Assembly (NCBI GenBank): GCA_900128395.1
Contig: LT649343.1
Location: 1 to 35,360, forward strand
Reading direction: 5' to 3'
DNA from: Stramenopiles sp. TOSAG23-2
Lineage: Eukaryota
DNA length: 35,360 bases
Made by a program: the position numbers and the translations under genes. Below, in pieces: positions 1,847 to 32,660 of the stretch (within the stretch, counting starts at the first letter, position 1; each line of letters begins with the position of its first letter). The notes below the pieces were generated by a model. The model saw only the letters and a program-made list of their open reading frames with translations. It ran no database searches and was not told the origin of the DNA.

Positions 1847-3610
1847 ATGCCAAAACGTACTTCAGAATCAGGACAAATGCGGAAGGAAGAATATGAAGCA
1901 ATGGAAAACCAGGACAGTGAAGAAGCAGGTGTGTGGCAAAAAGCATCTTCTAATGTGATTAGGAAACGTAAAATTTTAAAAGTAAGACGTAAAGGAAGTA
2001 GTGGTCCAAGTGTTGCTGCGAGTAAACCTGCAGCATCGAAAGGAAGTATATTTGGTGGTTTAGGAGGAAGTTTTGGTGGTGGAGGAAGTACATCAAACAA
2101 TAGCAGTGGTAAAAGTACCACGAGTGGTACAGGAGGAAGTATATTTGGTGGTTTAAGTAGTTTTGGAACATCTAGTGATACTACTACATCTTCATCTGGA
2201 TTGAATAATAATAATAATAATGGTGGGAGTGGAATGTTTAATTTTGGAAACAATAATAAACCATCAACAAGTAGCAAACGTAGTAGTAGTAACAATAATA
2301 GCTTTATTACTACTACTACTACTACCACTACCAGTAATAAAAATAATAGTAATAGCAATAGCAATTATCGTTCAACAACAAACGGTAATGGTACCGATAG
2401 CGATATGAAAAAATTAATTGGTTTGAATCTAGCATTTGCCGATTGGGTCAAGAAACAACATGGAAAGAATCCAAGTATATCGTGGGCAAAAGGATTGCAA
2501 GGTTATTTGAAACAATCTGCAAGTTTTGTTGATAAAAAAAAGAGTAATACAAGCAAAGCATCAAGTAGTAATAAAAGCAATAGCTTTTTCACAGCACCAA
2601 CAGCACAAACATCATCAGCTACGAGTAAAAGTTCGAGTAGTAATTTCAATTTTAATACAACGAATAACAGTACATCATCAACACCATTATTTAATATACC
2701 AAAAAAAACTGCTGTAAAAGACGAAGCGCCTGCAAAAATTAGTACGAGCAGCAGCAATATATCATCTTCTGGAAGTAGTGGAGATGATGATGAAGATGAA
2801 GTACTGAAAGTACGTGTGAAGATATTACGATTTAGAAAAGATGATAAAGAACAACCATGGGGTGATATGGGAATACATCAAGTTAGTATAATGACAAATC
2901 CATCTACAAAAAAATCACGTATTTTAGCAAGAGATGAGACACCATTAGCAAAATTACAAATCAATACGAATTTATATAAAGGAATGAAAGTAGATCGTAG
3001 TGGTAAACGTGATGTTCAAATATATTTAATAGTAGATGATGGTAAAATGACAATGTATTCAATACGTTGTAAATCGGGTGATATTGCAGATAAGTTATGT
3101 CAAACGATTAAAAACGCTGCGGAAGGAGTTGGTGGTGGTGGTGGTGGTGGTGGAGATAGTAGTAGTAGTAGCAACAATAGTAATAATACTTTCAAAGTAC
3201 CAGCACCAAAAATTCCAACAAAATCATCTAGTAATACTACAAGTAGCAGTAGTAGTGGTAGTAGTGATGAAGATGAAGTACTGAAAGTACGTGTGAAGAT
3301 ATTACGATTTAGAAAAGATGATAAAGAACAACCATGGGGTGATATGGGAATACATCAAGTTAGTATAATGACAAATCCATCTACAAAAAAATCACGTATT
3401 TTAGCAAGAGATGAGACACCATTAGCAAAATTACAAATCAATACGAATTTATATAAAGGAATGAAAGTAGATCGTAGTGGTAAACGTGATGTTCAAATAT
3501 ATTTAATAGTAGATGATGGTAAAATGACAATGTATTCAATACGTTGTAAATCGGGTGATATTGCAGATAAGTTATGTCAAACGATTAAAAATGCTGCTGC
3601 ATCTTGTTGA
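1847..3610 (+). CDS. NUP50: NUP50/Nup2-like nucleoporin with two C-terminal Ran-binding (PH-like) domains
   Basis: N-terminal NUP50 motif (KR..Q..KEEY..; G.WQKAS..VIRKRKILKVRR), FG-type repeats (GSIFGG x2, FNFG), two RanBD-like domains (KILRF..W.DMG..RILARDE..L.IN..LY). Confidence 0.85.
   Translation: MPKRTSESGQMRKEEYEAMENQDSEEAGVWQKASSNVIRKRKILKVRRKGSSGPSVAASKPAASKGSIFGGLGGSFGGGGSTSNNSSGKSTTSGTGGSIFGGLSSFGTSSDTTTSSSGLNNNNNNGGSGMFNFGNNNKPSTSSKRSSSNNNSFITTTTTTTTSNKNNSNSNSNYRSTTNGNGTDSDMKKLIGLNLAFADWVKKQHGKNPSISWAKGLQGYLKQSASFVDKKKSNTSKASSSNKSNSFFTAPTAQTSSATSKSSSSNFNFNTTNNSTSSTPLFNIPKKTAVKDEAPAKISTSSSNISSSGSSGDDDEDEVLKVRVKILRFRKDDKEQPWGDMGIHQVSIMTNPSTKKSRILARDETPLAKLQINTNLYKGMKVDRSGKRDVQIYLIVDDGKMTMYSIRCKSGDIADKLCQTIKNAAEGVGGGGGGGGDSSSSSNNSNNTFKVPAPKIPTKSSSNTTSSSSSGSSDEDEVLKVRVKILRFRKDDKEQPWGDMGIHQVSIMTNPSTKKSRILARDETPLAKLQINTNLYKGMKVDRSGKRDVQIYLIVDDGKMTMYSIRCKSGDIADKLCQTIKNAAASC
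2788..3597 (+). repeat. intragenic 333-bp direct repeat (2788-3120 and 3265-3597)
   Basis: Offset 477 nt; identical by eye except C3115/T3592 (synonymous). Confidence 0.95.
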
Positions 3611-3903
3611 AGTGTAAGGGAGATAGATGAATAATATGGTGGTAGAAAATGCGTGTGTGAGAGTGTAAAAAACTGTGTTTCTCTTCAAAATTACAAAAAG
3701 AGAAGCTTATATATGCATATCATATTTTAATTTATTTTTATAAATTAAAGTCTGCTGTTAGTTCATAGAAATTTTAAAAAACGTCAATCATTTTCTTCTT
3801 TCTTTTTTTTAAATACTTTAAAATTTTTATCTTACACATACACACACACAAATATTTTTCACAGGGTTTGATATATATATATATACATATATATACATGA
3901 AAA

Positions 3904-10041: not shown

Positions 10042-13000
10042 TTATTCTAACCCCAATGCATTGCTCCAACTATTATCTAACGATGCATTAATAGATGCAT
10101 TTACACCTGATGTATTACTCCCACCATGATTCAAAGCATCATCAGTTACCCTTCTTAATCTTTCCTCTCGATTTTTTAATTGTTTTAAATCTGTTGCTAA
10201 AGATAAAGATTCTTCATCTAAATAGTTTTGTTGTCGTTTCAATGTTTCTGACCAGCTTTTCAACTTTTCTTCACGTTCATGCAATTCAAGAGCATTTACA
10301 TTATCATTACTGTTTCTATTGTTCTTATTATTTTCTACATTATTTCTATCCTCAATATTATTATTAAATTGCAAATCTTCATTTTCCCGTTGCAATTCGA
10401 CCACTTTTGACGTTAATTTCCCAATTTTATCAATTAATTCCAAGCGTTTGTTACGATTTTCTCCTTCCGTCAATCGTGTATTTCCACCATTTCCACTACC
10501 ATTATTATCCATCCCACCTCCATTACCGTACAACATGCTTGCCTCCCATTGTTGCAATTCTATTTCTCTCAGCTGCATACTTTCTTCCCGATTCTTCACA
10601 GCCTCTAACGTTCGTTGTATGCTATCCAAAGCTTTCGTCCTGCTCCTTTCCTCTAAATGTTGTTCACGAAGCAAAACATCTCGTTCTTTCTTCTCTAATT
10701 CACTTCGTGCACCCTCAAGCGCTAAGCGTTGCTTTGCTAATGATGCACGTTGAAATATACGCTGTTCCTCCTCTTCTACGTAACTGCTGTTTCTCTCTCT
10801 TTCAAACAATCCCATTTTTTCTTCAAACATCTCGTTCTTTTTTATATATTCTTCCTCTTTCTTGTTATATTCAATTTCCATAAGTTCCTTCCTTTTTTCT
10901 AAATCTTTTTGATCTCGTTCCACTTGTTCGCGGAGCAATACAACCTGGTCCATTTCAATTTGATTAGCTTGCGTCAACACAGTATTGTTTTCAAGCTGTT
11001 CCAATTGTTTCTTCATCGCATTTGTTTTTGTTTCCATTTCTTCTTCAAATTTTTTCTCACGTTTTTCCAACTCTAACTTTTGCGCATCTAGTTGCTTCTT
11101 CGTATCGTTCACTTCATGTATTTCTTTCTCCAACAAATCAGCTGAAGCGTTTGTTCTTGCAAATGAACTTGATAATTCCTTCTTTGCTTTTTCTTGATTT
11201 TTCATAAACACTCGATCTCGTTCTTCCATTTCACCCAATTTAATATTTAGCTTTTTTTGCCATTCTTCCAATTGTTTTTCCTTACTTTTCAAGTCATTCT
11301 CTTTCATGTTTAACGTTCTTAAATTCTCTTTCATGTTTTCCTCTTGATTTTTTAATTTTAAACGAATGTCTTCCATTTCCCCAGTAAGAGTGTTTTTTTT
11401 TTCAACAAATTTTGTCTCAACATTTTGTTGTTTCTGCTCTAGATCATTCTCCTTTTGTATCAATGCTTCCCTTTGAGATTCCACTTCTTGTTGGATTTTC
11501 TCCATATCAGCATGTTTTTCCTCAACTTCAGCTTTTACTTTATCTTGCAATTCCTTTAATTCCTTATATTTAAACTCATATTCTTCCTCCAGTTTCTTCT
11601 TCATTTCTTTTACTTCCATTAATTGGTCTCGTTCCAATTCTTTAACACGTACATACTTATTTTCAGCATCTTCCATCATTTTTTTCGCAGTGTTTGCTTT
11701 TAATTTATTTGAATCCAAAATTCTCTTCTGCTCTGACAGTTTAGTTTCTACCTCTTGTAACTCTCTTGTTTTTTTCTTTAGAGCATCCGCTCGCTGATCG
11801 GCGCTTCTTTGTCTGTCTTTTAAACGCATTTTTAAAGATTCTAATTCTTTCTTATCAGCATTGAACGACTCTTCTTTCGACTGTAGTGCTTCAATTTTGT
11901 CATTCAATAATTCTTTTTCGGAATTTAATTGTTTTTGTTGATGTTTAATATTTTCAAACTGTCGTTCCATTTCGAGTTTGGCTTCATTTGATTTTTCTTC
12001 TGCAGATTTTGAAGCATTATTTAATAATTTTGTTAATCTCTCATTATTTAACTGTCTTGCTCTCAACTCTTCCTTTAAAGTACTTTGTATGGTATCGAGC
12101 TCTTGCTTTTCATTCTTTAGGATAACAATATCGTTTTTTAATTTGTTAATAGTAGAATCCATTTCTTCTCTATTTATTGAAGATATTTTTTCTTTCAATT
12201 CTTCTCGTTCCTTCACGAAATTAGATTTCAATTCAGCAATTTCTTGCTCACGTTCTTTAACTTTCAATTTTACTTCTTCCCTTAATTTATTATGGCCTTT
12301 TTCGAATTGCAGCTTCATGGTTTTGTATTTATTATTCAACATCTTCAATTCTTCTCTCAGTTTCCCTATTATCTCCTCTTTACTATCGATTTTGTGCTGA
12401 AGCGCGGCGGCTTTATTTGCAGCTAGTATACCAGCTGATTTTTGACCTTCTTCCGTACGCACAGAGAGAGCTATATTCCTTTCTCTCAATTTCTGCAAAT
12501 CCATTTTCTGTCGCTCGATTGTATTTTCTTGATCTTCTATCATGATTGTCAACGATTGAATCTTCTCGCTATCTTGCATCGATTTATCAACAATTTTATT
12601 CAATTTTGAGATTGTACGTTCCAACTCTTGCTCTACTGAGGTAGTTTTAGTCATTTCTGTTTGTAGCTTTGCTTTAATAGCTTCAATTTCTTCTTGCAAT
12701 GTCTCAATATTGTGCTTGCTTTCATCTTCTTGATGTGTCAACCGGTTGATGGTGCGTTCAAATTCTTTCTGTTTCTCTTCCAATTGCACCGTTAACTTTG
12801 CATTCTTGGTTGCCTTTTCTTCAAGTTTTCCTTGCAGTTCTTCACACTTGACATTTGATGTTTTCAAAAGTTCTTCTAACCTCGCAATCGCACTTTGTTT
12901 TTCATCTATTAGCGCGTTCAAAGTGCGCAAATCACTTTGAGCTTCAGCACCAACCGCAGCAACATCACGCTGTTTCTGAATTTTTAAATCGTTCATCTTG

Positions 13001-16000
13001 TTTGTCATTTGCCGCAATTCGCGCTCTAATTCCATGATTTTACCAGTTTTTTCACGCACATCGTTTTGTAGTTTTTTTAAAAGTTTCTTCTCGTTAGCTG
13101 ATTGTGCTTTCATTCTAAGTAAATTCTCATTTAGTTTCGAAACTTCTAACAGTTGTTCCTCAAATGTGCGTTGCTGTCTATCATATTCTTTTTCTTTGTG
13201 AGATAAATTTGATTGTAATTTAACAATTTCAGTAGCTTTGGTCTGTAATTTCGTATAAACTTCATCATACTCCGATCTAGTGGCCGCGACAGTATTTTCC
13301 AGCGACTTAATACGTTCATCTTTTTCAGTTAAAAGATTTTTTAACGTCATAGTAACATCGCGATCATCGTTTAATTTTTCACGCCACCTTTTCTCCGTAT
13401 TTGCAATAGCATTTTCTTTTTCCTTTATTCTGACAGATGAAATTTCAAGCTCCATGGTTTTCTGATCTAATTCAAGTTTCTTCTGCTGAAGTTCTTCCAT
13501 CATGGCCTGCTCATTAGCAGTTTTTGTCTGTTTCCAATTATTCATGTCACTCGCTTTCTGAGATTCGAATTCATTTTTTTCTTTTATAAATAAATCTTGT
13601 TGTAATTTAAATTCTGTCAATTCCTTTTGCAATGCATTGTTTTTCTCCTTCAAAGTGTCTTGATCTTCCCTGATTTTACTTTCAGTGATTTGTAACTCAT
13701 CTTCTTTATGCTTAATATTTCCTTCTTTATTTTGTAAAGCTAGGCTTTCTGATCGAATTTTCATCTCTGATTCATGGCGCTGCATATCCATTGACATCTT
13801 AAATTCTGCCATAGCCTTTTTTAAACTTTCCTCTCTTTCGAATAAATCCTTTCTCTGCAATTTCCGTTCTTCCTCCCACTCTTCTTGCTTTCTCTCAAAT
13901 TTAGATTCTATCTCTCTTTTATATAAAAGAAGTTCTTGTTCTTTGTCGATACTTTCTTGATTGAACTTGGAAACCTTTTGACTCAACTGGTCTTGAAGCT
14001 GCTTCAATTTCGTATCGTTCTCAGCCATTTTGCTTTCTATTTCGTCTCTTCTGCGCTTCAACGACGTTTCTTCATTTCGTATTTTTACCTCTTTCTCCGC
14101 AATTTGATGTTGCTGGCTTTCATGCAAAATACGTGATTTTTCCGCCTCTTCTTTTAACGCGTTTTTCTTTAATTCTATTTTTCGAATATCTTCTTCCAGA
14201 CGATGTATTCGATCTTCGTAATCTAATTCCAATTCACGTAACTTAGCCCGTCTCTGGATATTTTCTGCTTCCATTTCTTCAATATCCACTTTCCTACTGG
14301 CTAATTGGGCTTCAATTTGTTGTAATGTTCCAGCTTTTTCTGCTGTTCGCTGAGTAATTTGTTGTGCTGCATCATTCGTCATAGCCATATCATGTTGTAT
14401 TTTCCCAATCATTTTTTTCACATCTTTATCCATTGCCAATCGTTGCTCTTTTAGACGTTTTTCTTTTTTCTTTACAACATTCAACCTCTTGTCAATATCC
14501 GATTGAATAGATTTCTTGTAATCTTCAAAATTTTGTTTTATAACTTTTATTTCTTCTTCTTTTGTTTTAAATTGTTCCAGTTCTTCTTCTTTCTTTCTTA
14601 ATTTTAATTCTTTGCTTTCCATTTGCTCCAACTCTCTTTTTTGTTCAATTTTAAATCGTTCTTTTTCTAGAATGAAATTTTGTTGCTCATGCTCCATATT
14701 ACGCAACTCAATCAATTTCACGTCAATTTGATGTCTATTTTTCTCGTTCGATTCCCGTTCCTTCTCAATTTGTTTCCTCATTTCAACTTGCTCCTTTGCA
14801 ACAAGAATGTATCTTTCCTGTTCCTTCTTAAACTTATCTCTTGTTACGTTGAACGAATTTTCTTTTCGCTCATGCTCAAAACATTTACTTTCCAATTCAT
14901 CTTTCAAAGCCGACAATTCATCCATTTTTCTTCGATGTCGCGCTGTCTCTATTTTCATACTATTTTCTTCATTTTTCAAAGCAGCCAACCTTTCATTTAA
15001 TTGTTCTCGTTGTTGTTTTTGTTCAACTTGAAATTCTAGTCTAAGTCTCTTTAGCTCATCCTTTGAGTTGTTAATCACTTCTTGTATTGAGATCAAATTA
15101 TTTTCTTTTTCCTTTAATTTACCAAGACCGACTTCTATCCTCACGCGATGCTCTTCATTGAGCATTTTCTTCTGCTGCAACATGCTTGAAATGAAACGCT
15201 CATTTTCAGCCTTTAATTTTCCATGCCGTTCTATTTCTTTCGTTAATTGCTCTGTAACTTTAATTTTATCTTGTTGCATCTGATCAACATCTGCAGCCAT
15301 TTTTAATTGATGTTTTCGCATACTCTGCTCAAGCATATCTGCTTGAGTTTTGATATTTTCTTTTTGTGCCTCTAGAATATCACGCTCTCGTTTAAAAGCT
15401 TTCTCTGCTGTTGATCGGGCATTTTCTAGAATCTGTTGTTGGTTCAAAATACGTTCCTCTTGCGCTTCCCGTTCCATTTCCCAGGCTTGCCTTGCTTGTA
15501 AAAATGCTTGTTCCCAAGCTTTTACACTTTCAGCTCGACCATGAATTTTTGCAGCTGCTTCACTTTTTTCATCTGCTTCTTTCATTAGCTGTACAGCATG
15601 TTGATGGACTTGGTTTATCTCTTCTTCCTTTGTCTTCAATTTACGGTGTTCTTTCTGTAGATCCTGCATGAACTCTTTTGCATCCTCTTCCATTGCTCTT
15701 GCGTTATTTTCTTTTGCTGCAATTCTACTTTCTGATAGAGCCGTCATTTCACGCACATTTTCTCGTTCAATTAAAACCAGTGCTTTTTCTTTTTCCAATT
15801 TCACTTGCGTTTCTTCCAGTAATTGCATCGCTTGTCTTTTGTCAAGTTTCAACTTTTGCAAGTCTTCACGTAAGGTTTCAACCTCTTCTAATCGTTTTGT
15901 AGCTTTCAAGGTATCTTCATTGTGAGCCTTTAGTAACTTTTCTCGTTCTTCTTGAAGTTGCTTTTCTTTCCCCTCAATCATCGTATGTGTCTCTAATTGC

Positions 16001-19000
16001 GTGTTCCGCAACGTTGTGTCCAGGTCGTTTATTTCCATAGCTTTGTTTTCAACTACTTCTTCCTTTTTTATAACTTCTTGTTCTTTGTTCAATAATACCT
16101 TTTCTTTCAACATAAGTTTTGCTACCAAATCTTCATGTGTCATCTTCATCGCTTCTTTTTCCTGGTCAATTACACGTTGAGTAAGTTCTAGCTTTTTCTC
16201 TCTCATTTGCATCGTATCTTTCATTTCTTTTAATTCCAATCGCTGTTCAGCAAGCGCCTGCCATTCCTCCTCTAACAACTTAGTTTGATCATCATCATTT
16301 TTCTCAGCAAATATTTCCCTTTCAGAAACAGTTTGTTCCCTAGTCAACAAGTCATTCCGCAAGTTGTCGAGTGCCGCAGCGCGCGCTACTAATGCTTTTT
16401 CCCATTCATCCTTTTGTTGCCTTATATTCTCAGATGCACTTTCTAAGCTAGAACTTTGAAGGCCAAGATCATTTGCATGATTGTCAAGCGATTTCTCTCT
16501 ATTTTCCAATATTTTTAGACGTGAATGGTAATCCGCTTCATTTTTGGCCCATAGTTCCGCTTTTTCTTTGTATTCTTTTTCCACTTTTGCTTTGGCATTT
16601 TCAACAATTTTAGATGCACTTGCTTCCGCATCACGAAGTACTTTCCTCGCATCAGCATTAGCTTTTTCTTCAAGTTTTTGCGCATTGTTTTTTGCAGCAG
16701 TTTTAGCACTTTCTAGATTTTCCTTTGCTGTTTTTAATTGCTCATGCAATTCCAACTGTTTCTTCTTCAATTCTACTTTAGTAACTTTAGCATCTTCTTC
16801 CACTTTTGTTTCTAATTCCCGAATTTGAACCTGTGCTGTGCTAAATTCAAATTCAATACGACGTTGTGTTTCATTCTTCTCATCCGCTAATCGCTTTTTC
16901 GTCTCGGCTTCAAATATTTCAATTTCTTTCCATTTCTTCTTTACATGAGTATTTAATTCTTCCATTCTATTTGTTATATGATCTTCGCATTCTTTTTCCA
17001 TTTTCTTGCATTTACTTTCGCTTGCATCAATCATAGCTTCGGCTTCTTTTTTTGCCTTTGCTTCCATTTTTTCAACTTGAGCTTTCATATTTTCCTCTGC
17101 CATTTTCATTGCAACTTGAGCTTTTTTCAATTTTTCATGAACTTCCATTTGTTGTTTTTTCAAATTCTTCTTCGACTCGTGTGCATCCGACTCCAGCGTT
17201 GTCTCAACCTCTTTCACGCGTTGTTCAGATTTTTCTAATCGCATTTGAATCTCCTCTTCTATTTCCTTTTTACGCTCATAAATTTCTTTTTCAGCCTTTT
17301 CCTGTAAGCGTTTTATATTTTCCTGTTTCTCAGCAATTTCTTTCTTTGTTTCTGAAAGCATCTCCTGGCACTTTTCCTTCGTGTTTCTCTCACGATTTGA
17401 AGAATCTGCTTTTGCTTCTTGAATAATGTTATTTGCTTTATCTTCTGCTTTTGTTATTATACGATTTGCATCTTCACGAGCTTTCTCTTCACTCAGTTGT
17501 ATAGCTTGCTTGACTTGTGATAAACGTTTCTTGGCTTCCTCTCGATGTGATTTTAAAAGCTCTTGCTCTTTCATTGCTTCATCAACGATACTTTTTGCTC
17601 TTTGCTCTGCATGGGCTAATTTTGTTTGCATAATTTCATTTTGTCCTTGTATTTCAACATCTAGAAGTTCCATTTTTTTCTTACACTCAGTATCAATCAT
17701 AAATCTTTTTTCTTCAATCTCTTTATCCAATTCTATCAAAGCATTTTTCCTTATTTCTACCAAACGAATATTTTCATGCTCCTCCAATTCATTTTTTCGT
17801 CTCTCTATTTCAGCAGATTTCATTTCTATGTCCTTATTTGAGTTTTTAATATTTTCATCCATTTCCAATATTCGCTTTGCCACTTCTACATCTGCTGCTT
17901 TGAACATGTTTTCAACTTTTTCTTTTGCAGCTTTTTTCATATTTTCAACTTCAGTTTTAGCGCGCTTACTTGCTTTTTCCATTGAATCTTTTGCCCTTGT
18001 TAATTGCACATGGACAGATTCTTGCCTTCGTTTCAATTCTTCTTTCATTTTTTGTGTTTCTTTTGCTAGTTTTTCTCTCCTATCATTTGCTTCAAGTTCC
18101 GCGCGTTGTAAAACACCTTTTGCTTCACTTATCATAGCACTTTTTTCAGTTTCAAAAGCTTTCTTTTGATTCTCCAACGAACTTTGCGCGTCTCGTAAGC
18201 TTATTTTTAGTTGTTCCAACTGCTCTCTTTCTGATTCAAATCGACTCATTTTATCACCCGCAATTGTTTCAAACTCTACTATTCTACTTTTTAAATGATC
18301 TTCCCTCTCCTTAAATGCAGCAGTGCTTATCTTTTCTGTATGTTCAACTAATTTAATTCTACTTGAAATTTCTGCATCTAAATGTACTAGCTCTGCTTCT
18401 TGCTTTGCAACATTTTTATCTCGCTCATCAAGCATGCTACTTCTTTCATCTAGTTTTGTTTTCTCTTCTTCAATTCTACGCAATGCTTCTTTCTCACGTT
18501 CGAGTAAATTCAATCTTTCTGTATCCAACTCTTCTTTCCTGTTTTTGAAAAAACGCTCATTTTCACGTTCCGATCGATCTAGTAAATTTTTCGCATTATC
18601 ATATGCTTTCTCTCGCTCTTCAGATAGTTCTTTTCGCATTTCAGTTTCCTTTAATTTCAGTGCCTCTTCATTTGATTTACGTTCCTCCTCGATTTGTTTA
18701 TGAAGATCCTCACGTTCTTCTTCTAACCTTCTTTTTTCTCTATTGATAAATTCTTCTTTCTCTATTTCTAGTTTGGATTCCATTTGTTTTTCCTGATACT
18801 CTAGTTTTTTCATATTTAACGCTTTTTCTTCATCTAGTTTTTTCATATTTAACGCTTTTTCTTCATCTATCTTTTTCTTCTCTCTCTCTGTTTTATCTAG
18901 GAATTTTTTCTCTTTTGCCTCAAATTCGTTACTTAATCGAGTTCGCAACTCGCTTTCTTTTTGTTTGAAATTTGCAACAAGCTCTTCATTTCTTTTCTTC

Positions 19001-21228
19001 AGTTCGTATTGGCCTTTTTCTAATTCAAGTTTTACATCTTTTTTGATATTTGTAGCTTCTTCATTCCTGCGTTTAACTTCATTAGTTCGTTGTACAAGCA
19101 TCAATTCTGCATTTTTCAATACATTTTCTCTTTCATTAAGGGATTTCTTTAATTCTGTAAATTCATTTTCATAGTTTTCTAACGAATTGCGTTGCTCTTG
19201 AATATTACGAAGTTCTTCTTTTAGTTTGTCTCTTGCATCTCTAACTTGTTCCGCTGCAAGTTTTGCTCTCTCCTCTCGTGCTTTGACATCAATTTCATGA
19301 TTTCTTACTTTATTCTCACGATCTTCAATGTCTTTTTTCATGATTTCATACTTTTGTTTTTCATTTGTAAATTTCTTATCTTTCTCAGCAAATGAGGATT
19401 CTTTTTCATTTAACAAGGTAATAGCCTTTTCCATTTCAACATGTTTTTCATTCACTTCGGCAGTTTTTTCTTTCAAGTCATTTTCAACATTTTTAAAACG
19501 TTCCTTCGATAAGTTCAATTCATATTGCAATTTATTTTTCTCAATTTCCATCTGCTGAATTTTCTTTTGTAAACTAGTCACCTCTTCAGTTGCTCTATTA
19601 TTATTTTCATTCAATATTTTTTGATTTTTTTCCAATTCAATTAACTTGGCTTCCACATCTTTTCTTTTAAATTCTAACTCATTGGTCTTGTTATTTAAAG
19701 TAATTTCTTTCTTCGTTAATAACATCTCTTTCTCTTTAATTTTATCTAATAGCGATTCGTTTGATTTGTTTTGCTCCTTCATATTGTTTTCAAACTTTAG
19801 TATTCTTTTTTCTAATTTATTTTCATTTTCGTTTACTTCTTCTTGTTGTTTGTCTAATTGAGTCTCTCGCATTTTAACTTTATAGTCTTTCTTTTCTAAT
19901 AGAACTTCTCGTTCATTTAATTTTGAATTTGCTGCTCGTAGCCCAGTCTCTTTTTTTCGTATATCGGATAATGCGGTTTGAATATTGGTATTTTCCTTTT
20001 CCGACAATGCGTGTAATTTACGCTCTTCTTCCTCCAATTGTGATTCCCTAGTATTGCAACTATTTTCTCGATCTTTTAAAATTTCTTCTGTTCGTGTTAA
20101 ATTCATTTCTAGCATTTCTAATTCTTTTCGTTCTGCCAATGTATTTGCTTTGATGGTTGCTAATTGTTTTGACGTAGATGCTAAATTTATCGCATCGCCT
20201 TTTAAAGCTCGCTCATTTTCTAACATAGTATTTTCCCGATGACGTAGAGCCCTTTCATGGTTTTTCAATTTTTCCTCCCATTTACTATATAAAGACATTA
20301 ATTGTGTACGTGTTTGAAAATCATTGGTAGAATTTTTTGTAGTCTCAATGTTTAATAATATTTGATTTTTCTTATCATTTACTATCTCTAAATTATCAGC
20401 ATCATCATTACCATCAGTAAATTGTGCAGGAAGTGGTCTATTTGTTTTCAATTGAGATATGCGTAAACCTTCCATATATCCTTTTGCAAGATCAAAATCT
20501 ACATCTTCTTCGACTGGATTCAAGTTAACGTTATTGCTTTTTTGTTGTTGTTGTTGTTGTTGTGGCCGTTGACTAACACTTGTATTTGCATGTCTGCGAT
20601 GAAAATGATAATCATTCATATCAATCATATTTGGATTGTTGTTCATGTCAGCTCTAGCAGACGCATCAATAATCGTGGACAATTGGTCATTAATGCTTCG
20701 CAAGCCAGCAAGTGACGAAGTCCTGCTGGATATCAAAGATTCTTCCCGTTGTTGCTGCTCCTCTAGATCAAATATCGTGACAGCAGAAGATGAAGATATC
20801 CTACTTTTATTGCTATTATACCTCCGTGATTTGCTTTTTCTTTTTGATGACGTAGGAGTATTATTATTATTATTATTATTATTTGTCTTTGTAGGTGTAA
20901 ATACAGGTTGTCTCGGACGAAGACGACGACGAGTGGGTGTAGATGTTATTTTTTTTTTCTTTGTTCCTGTTGACTTGCGCATTGATGAAGTCTTTTTATT
21001 GCTTATTTTATTTTGTCTAACTTTCTTTTTCGCTGAGCTTATAGTTGGTCTTGATAGATCCCTAAGAACAACCTCATCAGTTTGTTTTATTGCTTTATTA
21101 TTTTCCTCAATAATTTGGTTCGTTATTTCAGTAGTTGCTGTTAAATCTTGTAATGCAGCTTTTAATCTACTTTTCCTACTTTCCCTGGCAGACGAGGAGG
21201 GGGAGGAAGGTGTAATTGTATTATCCAT
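10042..21228 (-). CDS. giant 3728-aa coiled-coil protein
   Basis: Uninterrupted 11.2-kb ORF; about 300-aa S/T/R/K-rich disordered head, then about 3300 aa of E/K/Q/L-rich helical sequence nearly free of Pro. No family recognised. Confidence 0.9.
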   Translation of the reverse strand: MDNTITPSSPSSSARESRKSRLKAALQDLTATTEITNQIIEENNKAIKQTDEVVLRDLSRPTISSAKKKVRQNKISNKKTSSMRKSTGTKKKKITSTPTRRRLRPRQPVFTPTKTNNNNNNNNTPTSSKRKSKSRRYNSNKSRISSSSAVTIFDLEEQQQREESLISSRTSSLAGLRSINDQLSTIIDASARADMNNNPNMIDMNDYHFHRRHANTSVSQRPQQQQQQQKSNNVNLNPVEEDVDFDLAKGYMEGLRISQLKTNRPLPAQFTDGNDDADNLEIVNDKKNQILLNIETTKNSTNDFQTRTQLMSLYSKWEEKLKNHERALRHRENTMLENERALKGDAINLASTSKQLATIKANTLAERKELEMLEMNLTRTEEILKDRENSCNTRESQLEEEERKLHALSEKENTNIQTALSDIRKKETGLRAANSKLNEREVLLEKKDYKVKMRETQLDKQQEEVNENENKLEKRILKFENNMKEQNKSNESLLDKIKEKEMLLTKKEITLNNKTNELEFKRKDVEAKLIELEKNQKILNENNNRATEEVTSLQKKIQQMEIEKNKLQYELNLSKERFKNVENDLKEKTAEVNEKHVEMEKAITLLNEKESSFAEKDKKFTNEKQKYEIMKKDIEDRENKVRNHEIDVKAREERAKLAAEQVRDARDKLKEELRNIQEQRNSLENYENEFTELKKSLNERENVLKNAELMLVQRTNEVKRRNEEATNIKKDVKLELEKGQYELKKRNEELVANFKQKESELRTRLSNEFEAKEKKFLDKTEREKKKIDEEKALNMKKLDEEKALNMKKLEYQEKQMESKLEIEKEEFINREKRRLEEEREDLHKQIEEERKSNEEALKLKETEMRKELSEEREKAYDNAKNLLDRSERENERFFKNRKEELDTERLNLLEREKEALRRIEEEKTKLDERSSMLDERDKNVAKQEAELVHLDAEISSRIKLVEHTEKISTAAFKEREDHLKSRIVEFETIAGDKMSRFESEREQLEQLKISLRDAQSSLENQKKAFETEKSAMISEAKGVLQRAELEANDRREKLAKETQKMKEELKRRQESVHVQLTRAKDSMEKASKRAKTEVENMKKAAKEKVENMFKAADVEVAKRILEMDENIKNSNKDIEMKSAEIERRKNELEEHENIRLVEIRKNALIELDKEIEEKRFMIDTECKKKMELLDVEIQGQNEIMQTKLAHAEQRAKSIVDEAMKEQELLKSHREEAKKRLSQVKQAIQLSEEKAREDANRIITKAEDKANNIIQEAKADSSNRERNTKEKCQEMLSETKKEIAEKQENIKRLQEKAEKEIYERKKEIEEEIQMRLEKSEQRVKEVETTLESDAHESKKNLKKQQMEVHEKLKKAQVAMKMAEENMKAQVEKMEAKAKKEAEAMIDASESKCKKMEKECEDHITNRMEELNTHVKKKWKEIEIFEAETKKRLADEKNETQRRIEFEFSTAQVQIRELETKVEEDAKVTKVELKKKQLELHEQLKTAKENLESAKTAAKNNAQKLEEKANADARKVLRDAEASASKIVENAKAKVEKEYKEKAELWAKNEADYHSRLKILENREKSLDNHANDLGLQSSSLESASENIRQQKDEWEKALVARAAALDNLRNDLLTREQTVSEREIFAEKNDDDQTKLLEEEWQALAEQRLELKEMKDTMQMREKKLELTQRVIDQEKEAMKMTHEDLVAKLMLKEKVLLNKEQEVIKKEEVVENKAMEINDLDTTLRNTQLETHTMIEGKEKQLQEEREKLLKAHNEDTLKATKRLEEVETLREDLQKLKLDKRQAMQLLEETQVKLEKEKALVLIERENVREMTALSESRIAAKENNARAMEEDAKEFMQDLQKEHRKLKTKEEEINQVHQHAVQLMKEADEKSEAAAKIHGRAESVKAWEQAFLQARQAWEMEREAQEERILNQQQILENARSTAEKAFKRERDILEAQKENIKTQADMLEQSMRKHQLKMAADVDQMQQDKIKVTEQLTKEIERHGKLKAENERFISSMLQQKKMLNEEHRVRIEVGLGKLKEKENNLISIQEVINNSKDELKRLRLEFQVEQKQQREQLNERLAALKNEENSMKIETARHRRKMDELSALKDELESKCFEHERKENSFNVTRDKFKKEQERYILVAKEQVEMRKQIEKERESNEKNRHQIDVKLIELRNMEHEQQNFILEKERFKIEQKRELEQMESKELKLRKKEEELEQFKTKEEEIKVIKQNFEDYKKSIQSDIDKRLNVVKKKEKRLKEQRLAMDKDVKKMIGKIQHDMAMTNDAAQQITQRTAEKAGTLQQIEAQLASRKVDIEEMEAENIQRRAKLRELELDYEDRIHRLEEDIRKIELKKNALKEEAEKSRILHESQQHQIAEKEVKIRNEETSLKRRRDEIESKMAENDTKLKQLQDQLSQKVSKFNQESIDKEQELLLYKREIESKFERKQEEWEEERKLQRKDLFEREESLKKAMAEFKMSMDMQRHESEMKIRSESLALQNKEGNIKHKEDELQITESKIREDQDTLKEKNNALQKELTEFKLQQDLFIKEKNEFESQKASDMNNWKQTKTANEQAMMEELQQKKLELDQKTMELEISSVRIKEKENAIANTEKRWREKLNDDRDVTMTLKNLLTEKDERIKSLENTVAATRSEYDEVYTKLQTKATEIVKLQSNLSHKEKEYDRQQRTFEEQLLEVSKLNENLLRMKAQSANEKKLLKKLQNDVREKTGKIMELERELRQMTNKMNDLKIQKQRDVAAVGAEAQSDLRTLNALIDEKQSAIARLEELLKTSNVKCEELQGKLEEKATKNAKLTVQLEEKQKEFERTINRLTHQEDESKHNIETLQEEIEAIKAKLQTEMTKTTSVEQELERTISKLNKIVDKSMQDSEKIQSLTIMIEDQENTIERQKMDLQKLRERNIALSVRTEEGQKSAGILAANKAAALQHKIDSKEEIIGKLREELKMLNNKYKTMKLQFEKGHNKLREEVKLKVKEREQEIAELKSNFVKEREELKEKISSINREEMDSTINKLKNDIVILKNEKQELDTIQSTLKEELRARQLNNERLTKLLNNASKSAEEKSNEAKLEMERQFENIKHQQKQLNSEKELLNDKIEALQSKEESFNADKKELESLKMRLKDRQRSADQRADALKKKTRELQEVETKLSEQKRILDSNKLKANTAKKMMEDAENKYVRVKELERDQLMEVKEMKKKLEEEYEFKYKELKELQDKVKAEVEEKHADMEKIQQEVESQREALIQKENDLEQKQQNVETKFVEKKNTLTGEMEDIRLKLKNQEENMKENLRTLNMKENDLKSKEKQLEEWQKKLNIKLGEMEERDRVFMKNQEKAKKELSSSFARTNASADLLEKEIHEVNDTKKQLDAQKLELEKREKKFEEEMETKTNAMKKQLEQLENNTVLTQANQIEMDQVVLLREQVERDQKDLEKRKELMEIEYNKKEEEYIKKNEMFEEKMGLFERERNSSYVEEEEQRIFQRASLAKQRLALEGARSELEKKERDVLLREQHLEERSRTKALDSIQRTLEAVKNREESMQLREIELQQWEASMLYGNGGGMDNNGSGNGGNTRLTEGENRNKRLELIDKIGKLTSKVVELQRENEDLQFNNNIEDRNNVENNKNNRNSNDNVNALELHEREEKLKSWSETLKRQQNYLDEESLSLATDLKQLKNREERLRRVTDDALNHGGSNTSGVNASINASLDNSWSNALGLE
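18800..18869 (-). repeat. 33-bp (11-codon) tandem duplication inside the giant ORF
   Basis: tctagttttttcatatttaacgctttttcttca twice; encodes DEEKALNMKKL x2. Confidence 0.9.
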
Positions 21229-23430: not shown

Positions 23431-25053
23431 ATGAAAAGAAATATATCTATTACGATCCATCATGATAAGATATTATTATTAATATTATTATTATTTATTA
23501 ATGTAATAATTATACTGGCAATTGCAAATAATAATAATAATAATGTAAATAATAAATATATAATAAATCCATCCACTTCGTCGAAGAAAAAAAAAACAAA
23601 CAATGATGTTGGATCATTAAGTTGGTTTACATATCCATTAAACCCACAAAATTTTATTAAAGATTATTTTGAAGTAAATCCTGTTCTATTCAATCGTAAC
23701 ATACCATCATATTACGAAGAGGATAGTTCTTCAACATCATCAAAATCGAGACCATTGGATGAATTATTTCATTACATTCAACAATCAGCATATGATAAGA
23801 AATGTCCTAGTTTAATCGAGACCAATGGATTTCCTACCATCCGAGCAACTAATAATGGTAAAGATGTAAAACCTTTTTTATATTGGAACATGCCTGAAAT
23901 AAAACAAGGATACGATGAAGCTGTAATTGCAAAAGAACAATCAAAATATCAAAAACATCAAATGTGGGATAAAGATGCAATACAATATACTCATAGTCTA
24001 GGATTTTCAACATTATTTATTCGTGCCCAACAATGGGAAAATACAGTTGCAAAGCCATTTTTAAGAGACGTCGCTTCAAAATTAGGAATTTATGCACAGA
24101 TGAATTTATATGTAACACCAGGGAATAAAGTTGGTTTTGTAAGCCATTTTGACTCACATGATGTATATGTCTTGCAATTATATGGTAATAAAAATTGGCG
24201 GGTATATCAAAATCCACCTGAACAATTACCAGCAAATGATTGGCCAAGAGCGGAAATTCAAAAGTATCTTAAACGTCGAAAAGCAAATCGTAAACATTTA
24301 ATAAATACGGTGTTAAAACAAGGAAATGCATTGTACATACCTCGTGGTTACATACATGATGCGGATTGTAAAGATTTAAAAGATGATTCTGTACATGTTT
24401 CTGTTGGTTTCTTTCCACCACTTTATGCCGATTTAATATATTATGGATTTCAATCTTTATTATCATCATATGATGAGGATAATAATCATTTTTTTAATAT
24501 GTCATTTATAAAAAGAATGTCATTAAAGTCTTTGAAAACAACAACGTCAAAGACAAAGAAAGAAATGAAAGATCTTTTATTGGCATTAAAAAGTTCTCCT
24601 ACTTTGCCATTTGCAACTGAGGATACTAATAATAGCAATAATATGCAAAATAATTTTAATATGTATAAATTAGCAGTTGAAGCTTTTTTTAATTTGCATG
24701 TTTATAATGTAGATACATTTAAAGATTTGACAACTAATGTACATAATAATAATAATAATGAATTAATAGTTGGGGAAAGCGAAATGAAAGTAAAAGTAGA
24801 ACAAATAAAAAACGATTTAATGAATGAAATCATATGGGAATCTATTAAAAAACAGTATAAACAAAATTTACACAAATTCGTTAAAGATGGTTTTCAGAAT
24901 GACCACCGTGTATATCGCCCAGTAAGTCATGATGCACAAGAAGCTCGTTCTGCAGAAGAATATAATGAGGGTGGCGGTGGACAAAAAAAAAGAAAACGTA
25001 AACATCGAAGGAAGAAGAGGAAACATACTAAGAAAAGTAGAGGGCGTTTGTGA
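23431..25053 (+). CDS. JmjC / cupin_4 2-oxoglutarate oxygenase (RIOX1/NO66/MINA53-like) with N-terminal signal or anchor
   Basis: NLYVTP..GF..HFDSHDVYVLQLYGNKNWRVY and LKQGNALYIPRGYIH supply the HxD...H iron triad; N-terminal LLLILLLFINVIIILAIA; polybasic C-terminus. Confidence 0.85.
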   Translation: MKRNISITIHHDKILLLILLLFINVIIILAIANNNNNNVNNKYIINPSTSSKKKKTNNDVGSLSWFTYPLNPQNFIKDYFEVNPVLFNRNIPSYYEEDSSSTSSKSRPLDELFHYIQQSAYDKKCPSLIETNGFPTIRATNNGKDVKPFLYWNMPEIKQGYDEAVIAKEQSKYQKHQMWDKDAIQYTHSLGFSTLFIRAQQWENTVAKPFLRDVASKLGIYAQMNLYVTPGNKVGFVSHFDSHDVYVLQLYGNKNWRVYQNPPEQLPANDWPRAEIQKYLKRRKANRKHLINTVLKQGNALYIPRGYIHDADCKDLKDDSVHVSVGFFPPLYADLIYYGFQSLLSSYDEDNNHFFNMSFIKRMSLKSLKTTTSKTKKEMKDLLLALKSSPTLPFATEDTNNSNNMQNNFNMYKLAVEAFFNLHVYNVDTFKDLTTNVHNNNNNELIVGESEMKVKVEQIKNDLMNEIIWESIKKQYKQNLHKFVKDGFQNDHRVYRPVSHDAQEARSAEEYNEGGGGQKKRKRKHRRKKRKHTKKSRGRL

Positions 25054-25248
25054 TTTATTTTTAATGGGAAACTGAGGGGAGAGTGTTTTACATTATAATT
25101 TGAAAGCAGGTACCGATATTTGTAGAGATTAAATAAAAATATATTTTAAAATTTATATCGAGTACACATACACACACAGATATTGCCAAAACTTTAATGC
25201 TTCTTGCGGTTCAAGTGAATCTATTTACGGCGTATTCAATTATAAAGA

Positions 25249-25320
25249 AATATTTTTTCAAGTTTTACAAAAATTTTTTTTATATTTTTTTTCATTTGTA
25301 AACCCATCATGTCAAATATT
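25249..25320 (-). promoter_or_regulatory. candidate SECIS element
   Basis: Minus strand AAUAUUU-GAC-AUGAU-GGGUUUACAAAUG-(A8 UAU A8 loop)-UUUUUGUAAAACU-UGAA-A-AAAUAUU: helix I (7 bp), internal loop, UGAN/NGAN core, helix II of 13 positions with 2 mismatches, A-rich apical loop; about 120 nt after the TAA of the TGA-containing gene. Confidence 0.7.
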
Positions 25321-25440
25321 AATATAAACTGGACACACCATATCGATTTAGAATGACACAAGAGACACATGTTCGATAAGTGTTGCTTCAATATATTATG
25401 AATCACTTCTATACTATATATATTATATATATAATATTGA

Positions 25441-26655
25441 TTATGCAGAAGAACAAACACTTGCACTACTACCATCAGCACAGGCTTTCTTTTGGATAGT
25501 ATCATAATCTGCATCTATTACAACGCCATCAACAACAATTTGTGGTAGAAACACTTTTTTAGGAAATTGTTTATTCATTTTATTCATTGCAATTTTCATT
25601 AATTCATCACCCAATGGACCATCGGAACATTTTTTCAATTGGTCTCCATCAATATTATTTTCTTTTGCACATTTATAAGGCTTGTTAGGCTTTAATTCGA
25701 CATCCCAAGGGGAATCCATACAATCTAAAAAATCAACCTGTCCTTTTAATCCGCTAGTTGTTAAATTAAAGGCACATAATGTAATTCTTTCATAATAACA
25801 ATTTGGTGAATCGACACAGGTTCCATTTAATGAGCGCACCGCAGGAACCATGGATAAAGTTGCATCCTTGTTATTATCACCGCCAAAATTGGTAAAGACT
25901 TTAATCCAGTCACTTGAACCAAAATGACGGCATAAAGGTCATCTAGAAGCAAAGAAATAAGTTATTGATGGCGAATCATTATTACTGCTATTATTAGATG
26001 CCATCCTCATCGTTGTTTCTTCGTTATTATTATTATTCAATTTCCCAACTACACTTTTATAGTTGCATTGTGTTGACGTACAAGCAATTTTTTCATTCAC
26101 AAGTACAGTTGGTAAAGTAAATGAACCTTTTCCAACTTTATTAATGGTAGCAACCATTCCTTCATGCAATAAATAATCACCTTGCTTTCCATTGAAACAA
26201 GTTGTAACTTGATCAAAATTTATTTTATTATTTAAAGCACATTGTTTTGGGATTGTTGGTTCATAGAAAAGTGGAAGTTTAGATTCATCCATACAATCTA
26301 AAAATTTCAAATTTGTTTCTACATTACCATTTGTATTATTAAATGCACACAACGTTACCTTTTCCCAATCACATGATGTTTCGTCTGCACATATCGGCGT
26401 CCCAGACGCACTGTATGGAATGGCAGGTATAAATTCAATATTTACTTTCTTTGCATAGTTTTTATAAATTGTTTGAAAGTCACCTGAACCAAAGGCTTTA
26501 CATGTTGGTCACGCTGATCCAAATAAATATGTAATGGATTGTGTTCCTCCTTGTGTATCTTGCAATTCATTTCCCAATACAACAACGGAAGATGAAACGA
26601 TGATATTTAACACTACAAATAGTGATAAATACATGGTTGTTGTGAAAGTTTTCAT
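25441..26655 (-). CDS. secreted tandem GILT-like thiol reductase selenoprotein, 404 aa, Sec at codons 49 and 239
   Basis: ORFs 26509-26751, 25939-26352 and 25441-25851 share one frame, broken only by TGA at 26511-26509 and 25941-25939, giving SITYLFGSA-U-PTC and SITYFFASR-U-PLC. Both halves align (TLCAFN, FLDCMD, CA, C..G..G..L, LP...V.). ATG at 26655 starts a signal peptide; ends at TAA. Confidence 0.88.
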
Positions 26656-27235
26656 TTTGTTAATCCTTGTCTCATTACAGAATCTTCTTTCTTTTATTGC
26701 TATTTCTCTTATTGCTATAATATTTATCTGTATGTATGTTTCTATAGACAAAATGTATATGCATCATTATATATAGCAGGTTCATACGCTTACGTGTGTT
26801 TTGTTTTTTCAGCTTAGTATAAAAATAATATTAAATAGCACAATAAAAAAGCTGAAATCATTTTTACAGCCTAAAATTAATTTCGGGTTATGAAATAGGA
26901 TATTACTAAGTACAATTGTTAGTATTCTAAATAAATGAGGTATTTTAACCTTAAAAAACACTTCAAAAAAGAGAGAACAGATTTTGTTATTTTGTTGACA
27001 AATTCAAAATTCATATAATTGATTATGATAATATAAAAGAAAAAAGAAGAATAGTAGAAACACTAAGATCAACAAATAATATAGATATATATAATATCAA
27101 CGATTATATAACTCGCATTCCCTCTCTTTATTACCATAATTTTGTATACGATAAAATACGGATAATACAAAAACGAAAAAAAGGAAGATAGTCAAATTAT
27201 ATACTATACTATATAAAAAACTATATTATTAACAA

Positions 27236-32111: not shown

Positions 32112-32660
32112 CTATATTTCAGAACAACAAGTGCAGAAAGTACCATATCGTACACTACATTTACTATTTTGGTCATTGTCACTATATAAATCATGACAAT
32201 AAAAGCAAACATGATGATAATTATCCCGATCAAGCATCTGCATGATATCTTTTTTCATAGCTGCTAATATCGGAGCTAACAGATCTGCTCGAGCAAACCG
32301 ATCTTGAGCAATGTGTGTGCCACAGAATTTTGAACCATCAGGCATATTATTTAAGCGGGCTATTCTCCTACCCGTCATTGTCAAATCGACATGAGGAGGA
32401 TGCTCACCCTGAACAAAGCCAAGAGGGAGCGCATTTACAATTTGAGATGCGTAGCTCTCCAAATCCTGACCAATATTAGCACTAAACATACGTTCCAGTT
32501 TACGCTTGCGACAACCACGAGAGAGACATACGTCAAAAACGTCTTTACATTCATCTACTTCTTTATGGTTATGATTTGGTGAACCACCACCGGTCATTCT
32601 AAATCGATCTAACATTTCTTCATCGATCTTTTCTTCATTGTATTTTGGTGATGACATCAT
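32112..32660 (-). CDS. hypothetical 182-aa protein with Cys/His-rich C-terminus
   Basis: ATGATG start, normal amino-acid composition, more GC-rich than its flanks; no family recognised. Confidence 0.55.
   Translation of the reverse strand: MMSSPKYNEEKIDEEMLDRFRMTGGGSPNHNHKEVDECKDVFDVCLSRGCRKRKLERMFSANIGQDLESYASQIVNALPLGFVQGEHPPHVDLTMTGRRIARLNNMPDGSKFCGTHIAQDRFARADLLAPILAAMKKDIMQMLDRDNYHHVCFYCHDLYSDNDQNSKCSVRYGTFCTCCSEI

Follow-up and report, generated by a model that had tools for sequence, protein, structure and literature searches.

A stretch of DNA from Stramenopiles sp. TOSAG23-2 (contig LT649343.1; its full 35,360 nucleotides were analysed and are called the window here) raises the question of whether two TGA codons that interrupt a minus-strand reading frame end translation or are the places where selenocysteine (Sec, U) enters a single protein. 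With standard stops the frame falls into three minus-strand ORFs, at 25441..25851 (136 aa), 25939..26352 (137 aa) and 26509..26751 (80 aa). An earlier note on this DNA had joined the three into one 404-aa frame ended by TAA, and translation with TGA=U agrees, as 26655..25441 on the minus strand is a single frame of 404 codons from ATG to TAA with the two TGAs as its sole breaks. The note had also placed the TGAs at the homologous position of two duplicated domains; when the domains are aligned with one another (37% identity, E=2e-30) both TGAs fall in the same column. A scan of the window listed 17 TGA-interrupted frames, and by eye none but this one resembled a gene. Its parts, from the coding sequence to the 3'UTR, are as follows.

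25441 to 26655, minus strand: complete, intronless CDS of 404 codons plus TAA (25441-25443), from translation and colinear RNA contigs.
26575 to 26655, minus strand: probable signal peptide, about residues 1-27, suggested by hydrophobicity.
26041 to 26544, minus strand: GILT/DsbA-like domain 1, about residues 38-205, from Pfam, the alignment with mouse GILT and the tree.
26509 to 26511, minus strand: first in-frame TGA, codon 49 (U49), motif U-P-T-C in the context FGSA-U-PTC, kept in loci L001-L005.
25975 to 26040, minus strand: Asn/Ser-rich interdomain linker, about residues 206-227, of low pLDDT and variable among variants.
25444 to 25974, minus strand: GILT/DsbA-like domain 2, about residues 228-404, from a Pfam stretch, likeness to domain 1 and the tree.
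25939 to 25941, minus strand: second in-frame TGA, codon 239 (U239), motif U-P-L-C in the context FASR-U-PLC, kept in loci L001-L005.
25168 to 25440, minus strand: 3'UTR, at least this long, from record 10 of RNA study X4.
25249 to 25320, minus strand: candidate SECIS with an ATGA...GA pattern, 130 nt past the stop.

The plainest objections to a recoded gene are that this organism reads TGA as Trp or Cys, that the frame is a decaying pseudogene, or that it comprises three separate small genes, and public gene calls lend these some colour, with W in full-length members of the family and fragments of 62-172 aa elsewhere. The genes around the locus speak to the first of them. Ten complete long neighbouring ORFs could be checked, six ending in TGA, two in TAA and two in TAG, and an internal in-frame TGA occurs in none of the ten, a 3728-codon ORF included. 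The earlier count of six TGA-terminated genes among ten is thus exact for these long ORFs, and the accompanying claim that TGA has not been globally reassigned stands as well. Because TGA stops six of the ten and lies inside none, it is an ordinary stop in the source organism and reassignment is excluded.

The neighbours are ordinary eukaryotic genes, for NUP50/RanBP1, a tetraspanin, dynactin p62, a JmjC protein, a RAD51 paralogue (RAD51C-like, eukaryotic) and a U-box/Sel1 protein, and the one convergent with the GILT gene ends at 25053. No tRNA genes were found in the window. The NUP50/RanBP1 gene (1847-3610, plus strand) carries a direct repeat within it that shows up as two stretches of RanBP1, and an antisense read-through frame at 2503-3690 contains a repeated block that mirrors it. 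The 3728-codon ORF (10042-21228, minus strand) is unbroken and matches no Pfam family; Glu (17%), Lys (14%) and Leu (10%) abound in its product, which is therefore probably a giant coiled-coil protein. The same ORF accounts for a strong strand skew from 10 to 20 kb.

If the TGAs were removed from the message, either by introns or because the genomic reading was wrong at these positions, there would be nothing to recode. The stretch is represented in marine metagenomes and metatranscriptomes of 12 studies, and contigs that span the full CDS were obtained from two RNA studies, X4 (record 11, 25440-26660) and X11 (record 1, 25371-26676), the latter a poly-A library; contigs from RNA libraries are not strict proof of transcription. 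Both are colinear with the gene, free of joints and identical to it at the two TGAs, and both TGAs are also intact in the DNA run X2. Two of the outcomes that the earlier note had named as fatal to its proposal, introns that remove the TGAs and reads with TGT or TGC at the sites, were accordingly not seen, the former in the contigs of the two RNA studies and the latter in the contigs of X4, X11 and X2. Most differences among variants from the environment fall either in the linker or in the A-rich loop of the hairpin in the 3'UTR. In the linker there are in-frame 3-base length differences at 25989 and 26027 and many substitutions between 25994 and 26029; in the hairpin loop, the A-run at 25274-25292 varies in length by 9-10 nt among variants and the stems are constant. 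The 3'UTR is covered from 25168 to 25407 by X4 record 10, and an AT dinucleotide repeat directly after the stop codon (25408-25439) breaks the RNA contigs.

The relatives of the protein bear on the two TGAs most directly. A word-index search gave two clusters, at 98% and 46% identity; in public gene calls, their full-length members read W at each of the two sites. Since the underlying DNA reads TGA, the W most likely comes from a gene-calling table in which TGA=Trp. The remaining members of these clusters are short fragments (62-172 aa) whose starts or ends coincide with the TGAs, and NCBI or JGI names some of these "hypothetical protein". It had been foreseen that gene callers would break such a gene apart, and these public fragments are the result; that they begin or end at the TGAs also argues against separate small genes.

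An exhaustive search (E<=1e-3), from which the best 150 of 170 matches were parsed, extended this pattern. Domain 1 is present in at least nine cluster representatives (30-57% identity) whose sequence breaks off at ..Y[FY]FAS-x right before site 2 (11 were flagged, less the artefacts P0055 and P0121), and about a dozen others among the best 150 of the 170 matches start just past a site. Among the matches listed, 43 rows span a site, and Cys, typically as C-P-x-C, stands there in 39 of them, with W in two, S in one and L in one. Five sequences with Cys at the site (FGAN-C-P-x-C-K; P0090, P0112, P0118, P0152 and P0172) group with the Sec forms and not with the Cys-GILT outgroup, a placement that hints at exchange between Sec and Cys within the group.

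Homologous DNA was sought by scanning JGI metagenome contigs with a two-sequence alignment, which yielded five loci, L001-L005. All five have TGA at both sites, followed each time by conserved coding sequence. Their GC content ranges from 0.30 to 0.64 (0.48 in L001, 0.54 in L003 and 0.64 in L004), and protein identity through both sites is 42-49%, save for L002, which is a near-copy of the window locus, and a 99% match to the query P0003. Homologues with either TGA or Cys at the two sites were what the earlier note had advised looking for, and both kinds exist, TGA in the five loci and Cys in 39 of the 43 more distant rows among the matches listed. The conservation past both TGAs in all five loci is purifying, which speaks against a pseudogene. 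With this, the reading of the frame as sense-coded, decaying or threefold is highly improbable and may be regarded as largely refuted already. Because the TGAs are kept in five of five loci and distant relatives have Cys in the same column, selenocysteine is very probably the best reading of both UGAs, to judge from the aligned sequences.

The fifth locus, L005 (2300-4030), is a paralogue whose accession prefix is shared with L001 and which has both TGAs; several introns split it, in contrast to L001 and the window gene, where there are none. On account of its introns L005 was left outside the tree, as were P0073, P0089 and P0181. In the tree, one clade (SH-aLRT 99) unites all four domain-1 sequences with six of the fragments that end before site 2, and a separate one (SH-aLRT 99) comprises all four domain-2 sequences; since the two are separate, the duplication of the domain predates the sampled lineages.

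What kind of domain was duplicated is answered in the first place by Pfam. The GILT family (PF03227) matches with 43.9 bits against a cut-off of 22.4 (E=3.2e-11) in two stretches, the best of which in domain 1 covers residues 42-126. A sequence search of the PDB found mouse GILT (6nwx) weakly, at E=0.42, in an alignment over residues 43-190 that matches the redox motif and three further cysteines; BdbD was also among the matches. In this weak alignment, three Cys of the GILT signature region align with mouse GILT and the remaining signature residues differ. An AlphaFold2 model from a 14-row alignment has a mean pLDDT of 77.5 and consists of two folded domains joined by a disordered linker (residues 211-225, pLDDT <50); pLDDT is also below 50 at residues 1-36 and is about 61, a low confidence, around site 1. 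When this model was compared with the PDB by Foldseek, the top match was 6nwx_A (E=4.9e-6, TM 0.66 on the target, 166 columns) at about 21% identity. The assignment to GILT that had first been made by eye thus agrees with both the Pfam score and the structural comparison.

The model also bears on where the UGAs lie in the fold. In a thioredoxin fold, the canonical position of the redox residue is after a strand and before a helix. Domain 2 is modelled with a strand at residues 230-235, then the Sec codon at 239 and then a helix at 240-243, so that modelled site 2 agrees with a redox motif that opens helix 1 directly behind strand 1, and site 1 does so at lower confidence. At the other end of the chain, the most hydrophobic 15-residue windows of the protein start at residues 10-14 (spanning 10-28), and the protein has six N-x-S/T sequons; a hydrophobic N-terminus and sequons would fit a protein of the secretory pathway. 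Of the signal peptide that had been proposed, the N-terminal position of the most hydrophobic stretch is borne out, and its identity as a signal peptide is probable.

After mouse GILT, the next fold matches are DsbA/BdbD proteins at 12-20% identity. This opens the possibility that a two-Sec protein is made, and that it is not a lysosomal reductase but a disulfide oxidase or isomerase that is secreted or works at the cell surface or in the ER, in the manner of PDI a/a' or DsbA. That oxidases of the DsbA/BdbD type come next in the fold search would suit such a function, and two redox domains in one chain recall PDI. The Pfam family and the best structural match are nevertheless both GILT, and three Cys of the signature region line up with mouse GILT in the weak sequence alignment, which makes an oxidase or isomerase the unlikelier assignment, if one still to be taken seriously. 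The likeness to bacterial DsbA and BdbD extends to the thioredoxin fold, the helical insert and the N-terminal redox motif, but these proteins are prokaryotic, oxidising, Cys-based and single-domain, and the match is one of fold only, at the 12-20% identity noted. Mammalian GILT (IFI30; mouse 6nwx) shares with the window protein its Pfam family, its fold and the motif after strand 1, and in the weak alignment three Cys of its signature region line up as well; it differs in having a single domain with Cys-x-x-Cys and only about 21% identity, and the non-Cys residues of the signature are different here.

Reading UGA as Sec in a eukaryote calls for a SECIS element, and the 387-nt 3'UTR holds one compact candidate. 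In it, helix I would have 7 bp (25320-25314 with 25255-25249), followed by the ATGA core at 25310-25307, a helix II of about 10 bp, an A-rich apical loop and the GA at 25259-25258, and an unconstrained MFE fold reproduces this layout in the window. Compared with shuffled sequence, the window hairpin has no excess stability (z=+1.05 and -0.16). A home-made SECIS descriptor passes 13 sites in 70.7 kb (the window, both strands), two of them at the candidate's quality, and the chance of a descriptor site in the right UTR is therefore about 1-7%. Rfam gave no SECIS or credible family in the window at gathering thresholds, in 24700-26700 at E<=10 or in L001-L005 at E<=1. The hairpin that had been noticed downstream of the gene is consequently upheld as a structure at 25320-25249 that fits the pattern, and not as one that matches Rfam or exceeds shuffled sequence in stability.

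The homologous loci provide a firmer example. In L001 the descriptor has its sole match in 10.2 kb at 57 nt past the stop, with a 12-nt spacer and a loop that begins with A's, and the hairpin has z=-2.55, with 6 of 200 shuffles folding as well. What L003 and L004 offer are loose ATGA..GA candidates, none of which passes the descriptor, and the 3'UTR of L005 is interrupted by the contig end. The SECIS is convincing in L001 and weaker in the window, and a SECIS in the 3'UTR of the window gene is probable on the basis of pattern and position.

Some further matches were met in these searches. Several unrelated X2 contigs match a 33-base stretch within 25265-25302 (the core side of the SECIS and the A-run) with 3 mismatches; these might be SECIS elements of other genes or simply an A-rich repeat or low complexity. 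The descriptor also passes sites at 32176 and 32005 (minus strand), near the end of and just downstream of a 182-aa ORF (32112-32660), and because this ORF has neither an in-frame TGA nor a Pfam family both are probably due to chance. Rfam hits to MALAT1, SNORA27 and SR1 antisense, found in 24700-26700 at E<=10, lie inside the CDS, far below the thresholds of their own families, and were dismissed.

It is at this point that a different decoding of the UGAs has to be considered, whether by near-cognate or suppressor-tRNA readthrough (to Trp, Cys or Arg) or as leaky stops with a regulatory purpose. In its favour, the SECIS in the window is recognised at the level of its pattern, with no Rfam family matched. 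Set against this are the well-formed SECIS directly after the stop of L001, the retention of both UGAs across genomes of 30-64% GC, and the position of the UGA exactly in the redox Cys column of CxxC, which is the classical exchange of Cys and Sec and has been published for GILT itself (PMC2398784, in its account of this family). Decoding as anything other than Sec is therefore quite improbable.

That GILT can be a selenoprotein was established by Zhang and Gladyshev in 2008, who, in the account of the family given in their paper, reported it as a eukaryotic selenoprotein family not described before, found in Global Ocean Sampling reads, with three Sec-GILT sequences, one predicted SECIS and an unknown organism (PMC2398784). 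A survey of algal selenoproteomes, in its sections on family distribution, places GILT among the least widely distributed Sec families (PMC7539508), and a "GILT superfamily" selenoprotein appears in the legend to Figure 6 of a transcriptome study of Aureococcus anophagefferens (PMC5917014). The statement in the earlier note that Sec-GILTs had been reported was therefore right, as far as these parts of the three papers go. As to the novelty of the tandem form, on which the note had not committed itself, a literature search of main texts found no paper that describes a tandem or two-Sec GILT, and the portions of the main text of PMC7539508 drawn on here make no mention of a two-Sec GILT. The Sec-GILT family is already published, and only the tandem two-Sec architecture appears to be new, as far as the texts searched go.

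Comparison with what is known makes the same distinction. Like the published Sec-GILT, as presented in the parts of those papers cited above, the window gene comes from a marine eukaryote and has a GILT domain, a UGA at the first Cys of CxxC and, in its 3'UTR, a SECIS (here a candidate); unlike those three short-read sequences, it has tandem domains and two UGAs about 570 nt apart, apparently with one SECIS. Recoding of more than one UGA per mRNA is shared with SELENOP, two-Sec SELENOW, SELENOJ and PDI_e (GUGUU), and multi-Sec forms of the last three are discussed in the relevant sections of the algal survey (PMC7539508). In such proteins the extra Sec lies in one motif or a Sec-rich tail, or arose through a change from Cys to Sec. 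In the window gene, by contrast, the duplication took in an entire catalytic domain, Sec codon included, and the arrangement is conserved.

Taken together, the locus is a genuine gene and very probably a two-Sec member of the Sec-GILT family, and the full reading, to which a probability of about 0.85 can be given, is that of an expressed, intronless nuclear gene for a secretory protein with two GILT domains, in which the UGAs are recoded as Sec and the likely role is that of a reductase. This gene of an AT-rich marine eukaryote would encode a secretory-pathway protein of about 400 residues with two GILT (DsbA-like thioredoxin-fold) domains, in each of which UGA would encode the first residue of the CxxC redox motif. 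Both UGAs would be recoded by one SECIS in the 3'UTR, dependent on SBP2 and eEFSec, to give two separate U-P-x-C active sites. At each of these the selenolate may attack a substrate disulfide to form a mixed selenenylsulfide, which the Cys of the motif would then resolve. It would probably serve to reduce the disulfides of proteins inside endolysosomes or phagosomes, at acidic pH. That Sec has a low pKa is established chemistry, and this would keep the nucleophile ionised under such conditions, a presumed advantage over Cys. The duplication would be old, and the tandem two-UGA form would be conserved in many marine lineages.

A bolder version of this reading can be put forward tentatively, at somewhat less than even odds. 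It holds that the gene belongs to an old and widespread clade of marine protists' proteins with two Sec-GILT domains, two distant UGAs and one SECIS, which would serve to unfold disulfide-rich proteins, for example those of prey, in acidic phagolysosomes, perhaps through a PDI-like relay, and which would be absent from selenoprotein catalogues and split by gene callers.

Few proteins contain more than one selenocysteine. In this family an entire catalytic domain, together with the codon for its Sec, was doubled, and many lineages have retained the result. Gene catalogues of marine eukaryotes misrepresent the gene, because annotations split it or read Trp at its active sites. The conditions under which GILT acts are acidic, and it is there that a low pKa such as that of Sec should count most. 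Because of this, and because the family has natural Cys relatives, Sec-GILT and those relatives together would allow a clean test of why cells bear the cost of Sec in place of Cys.
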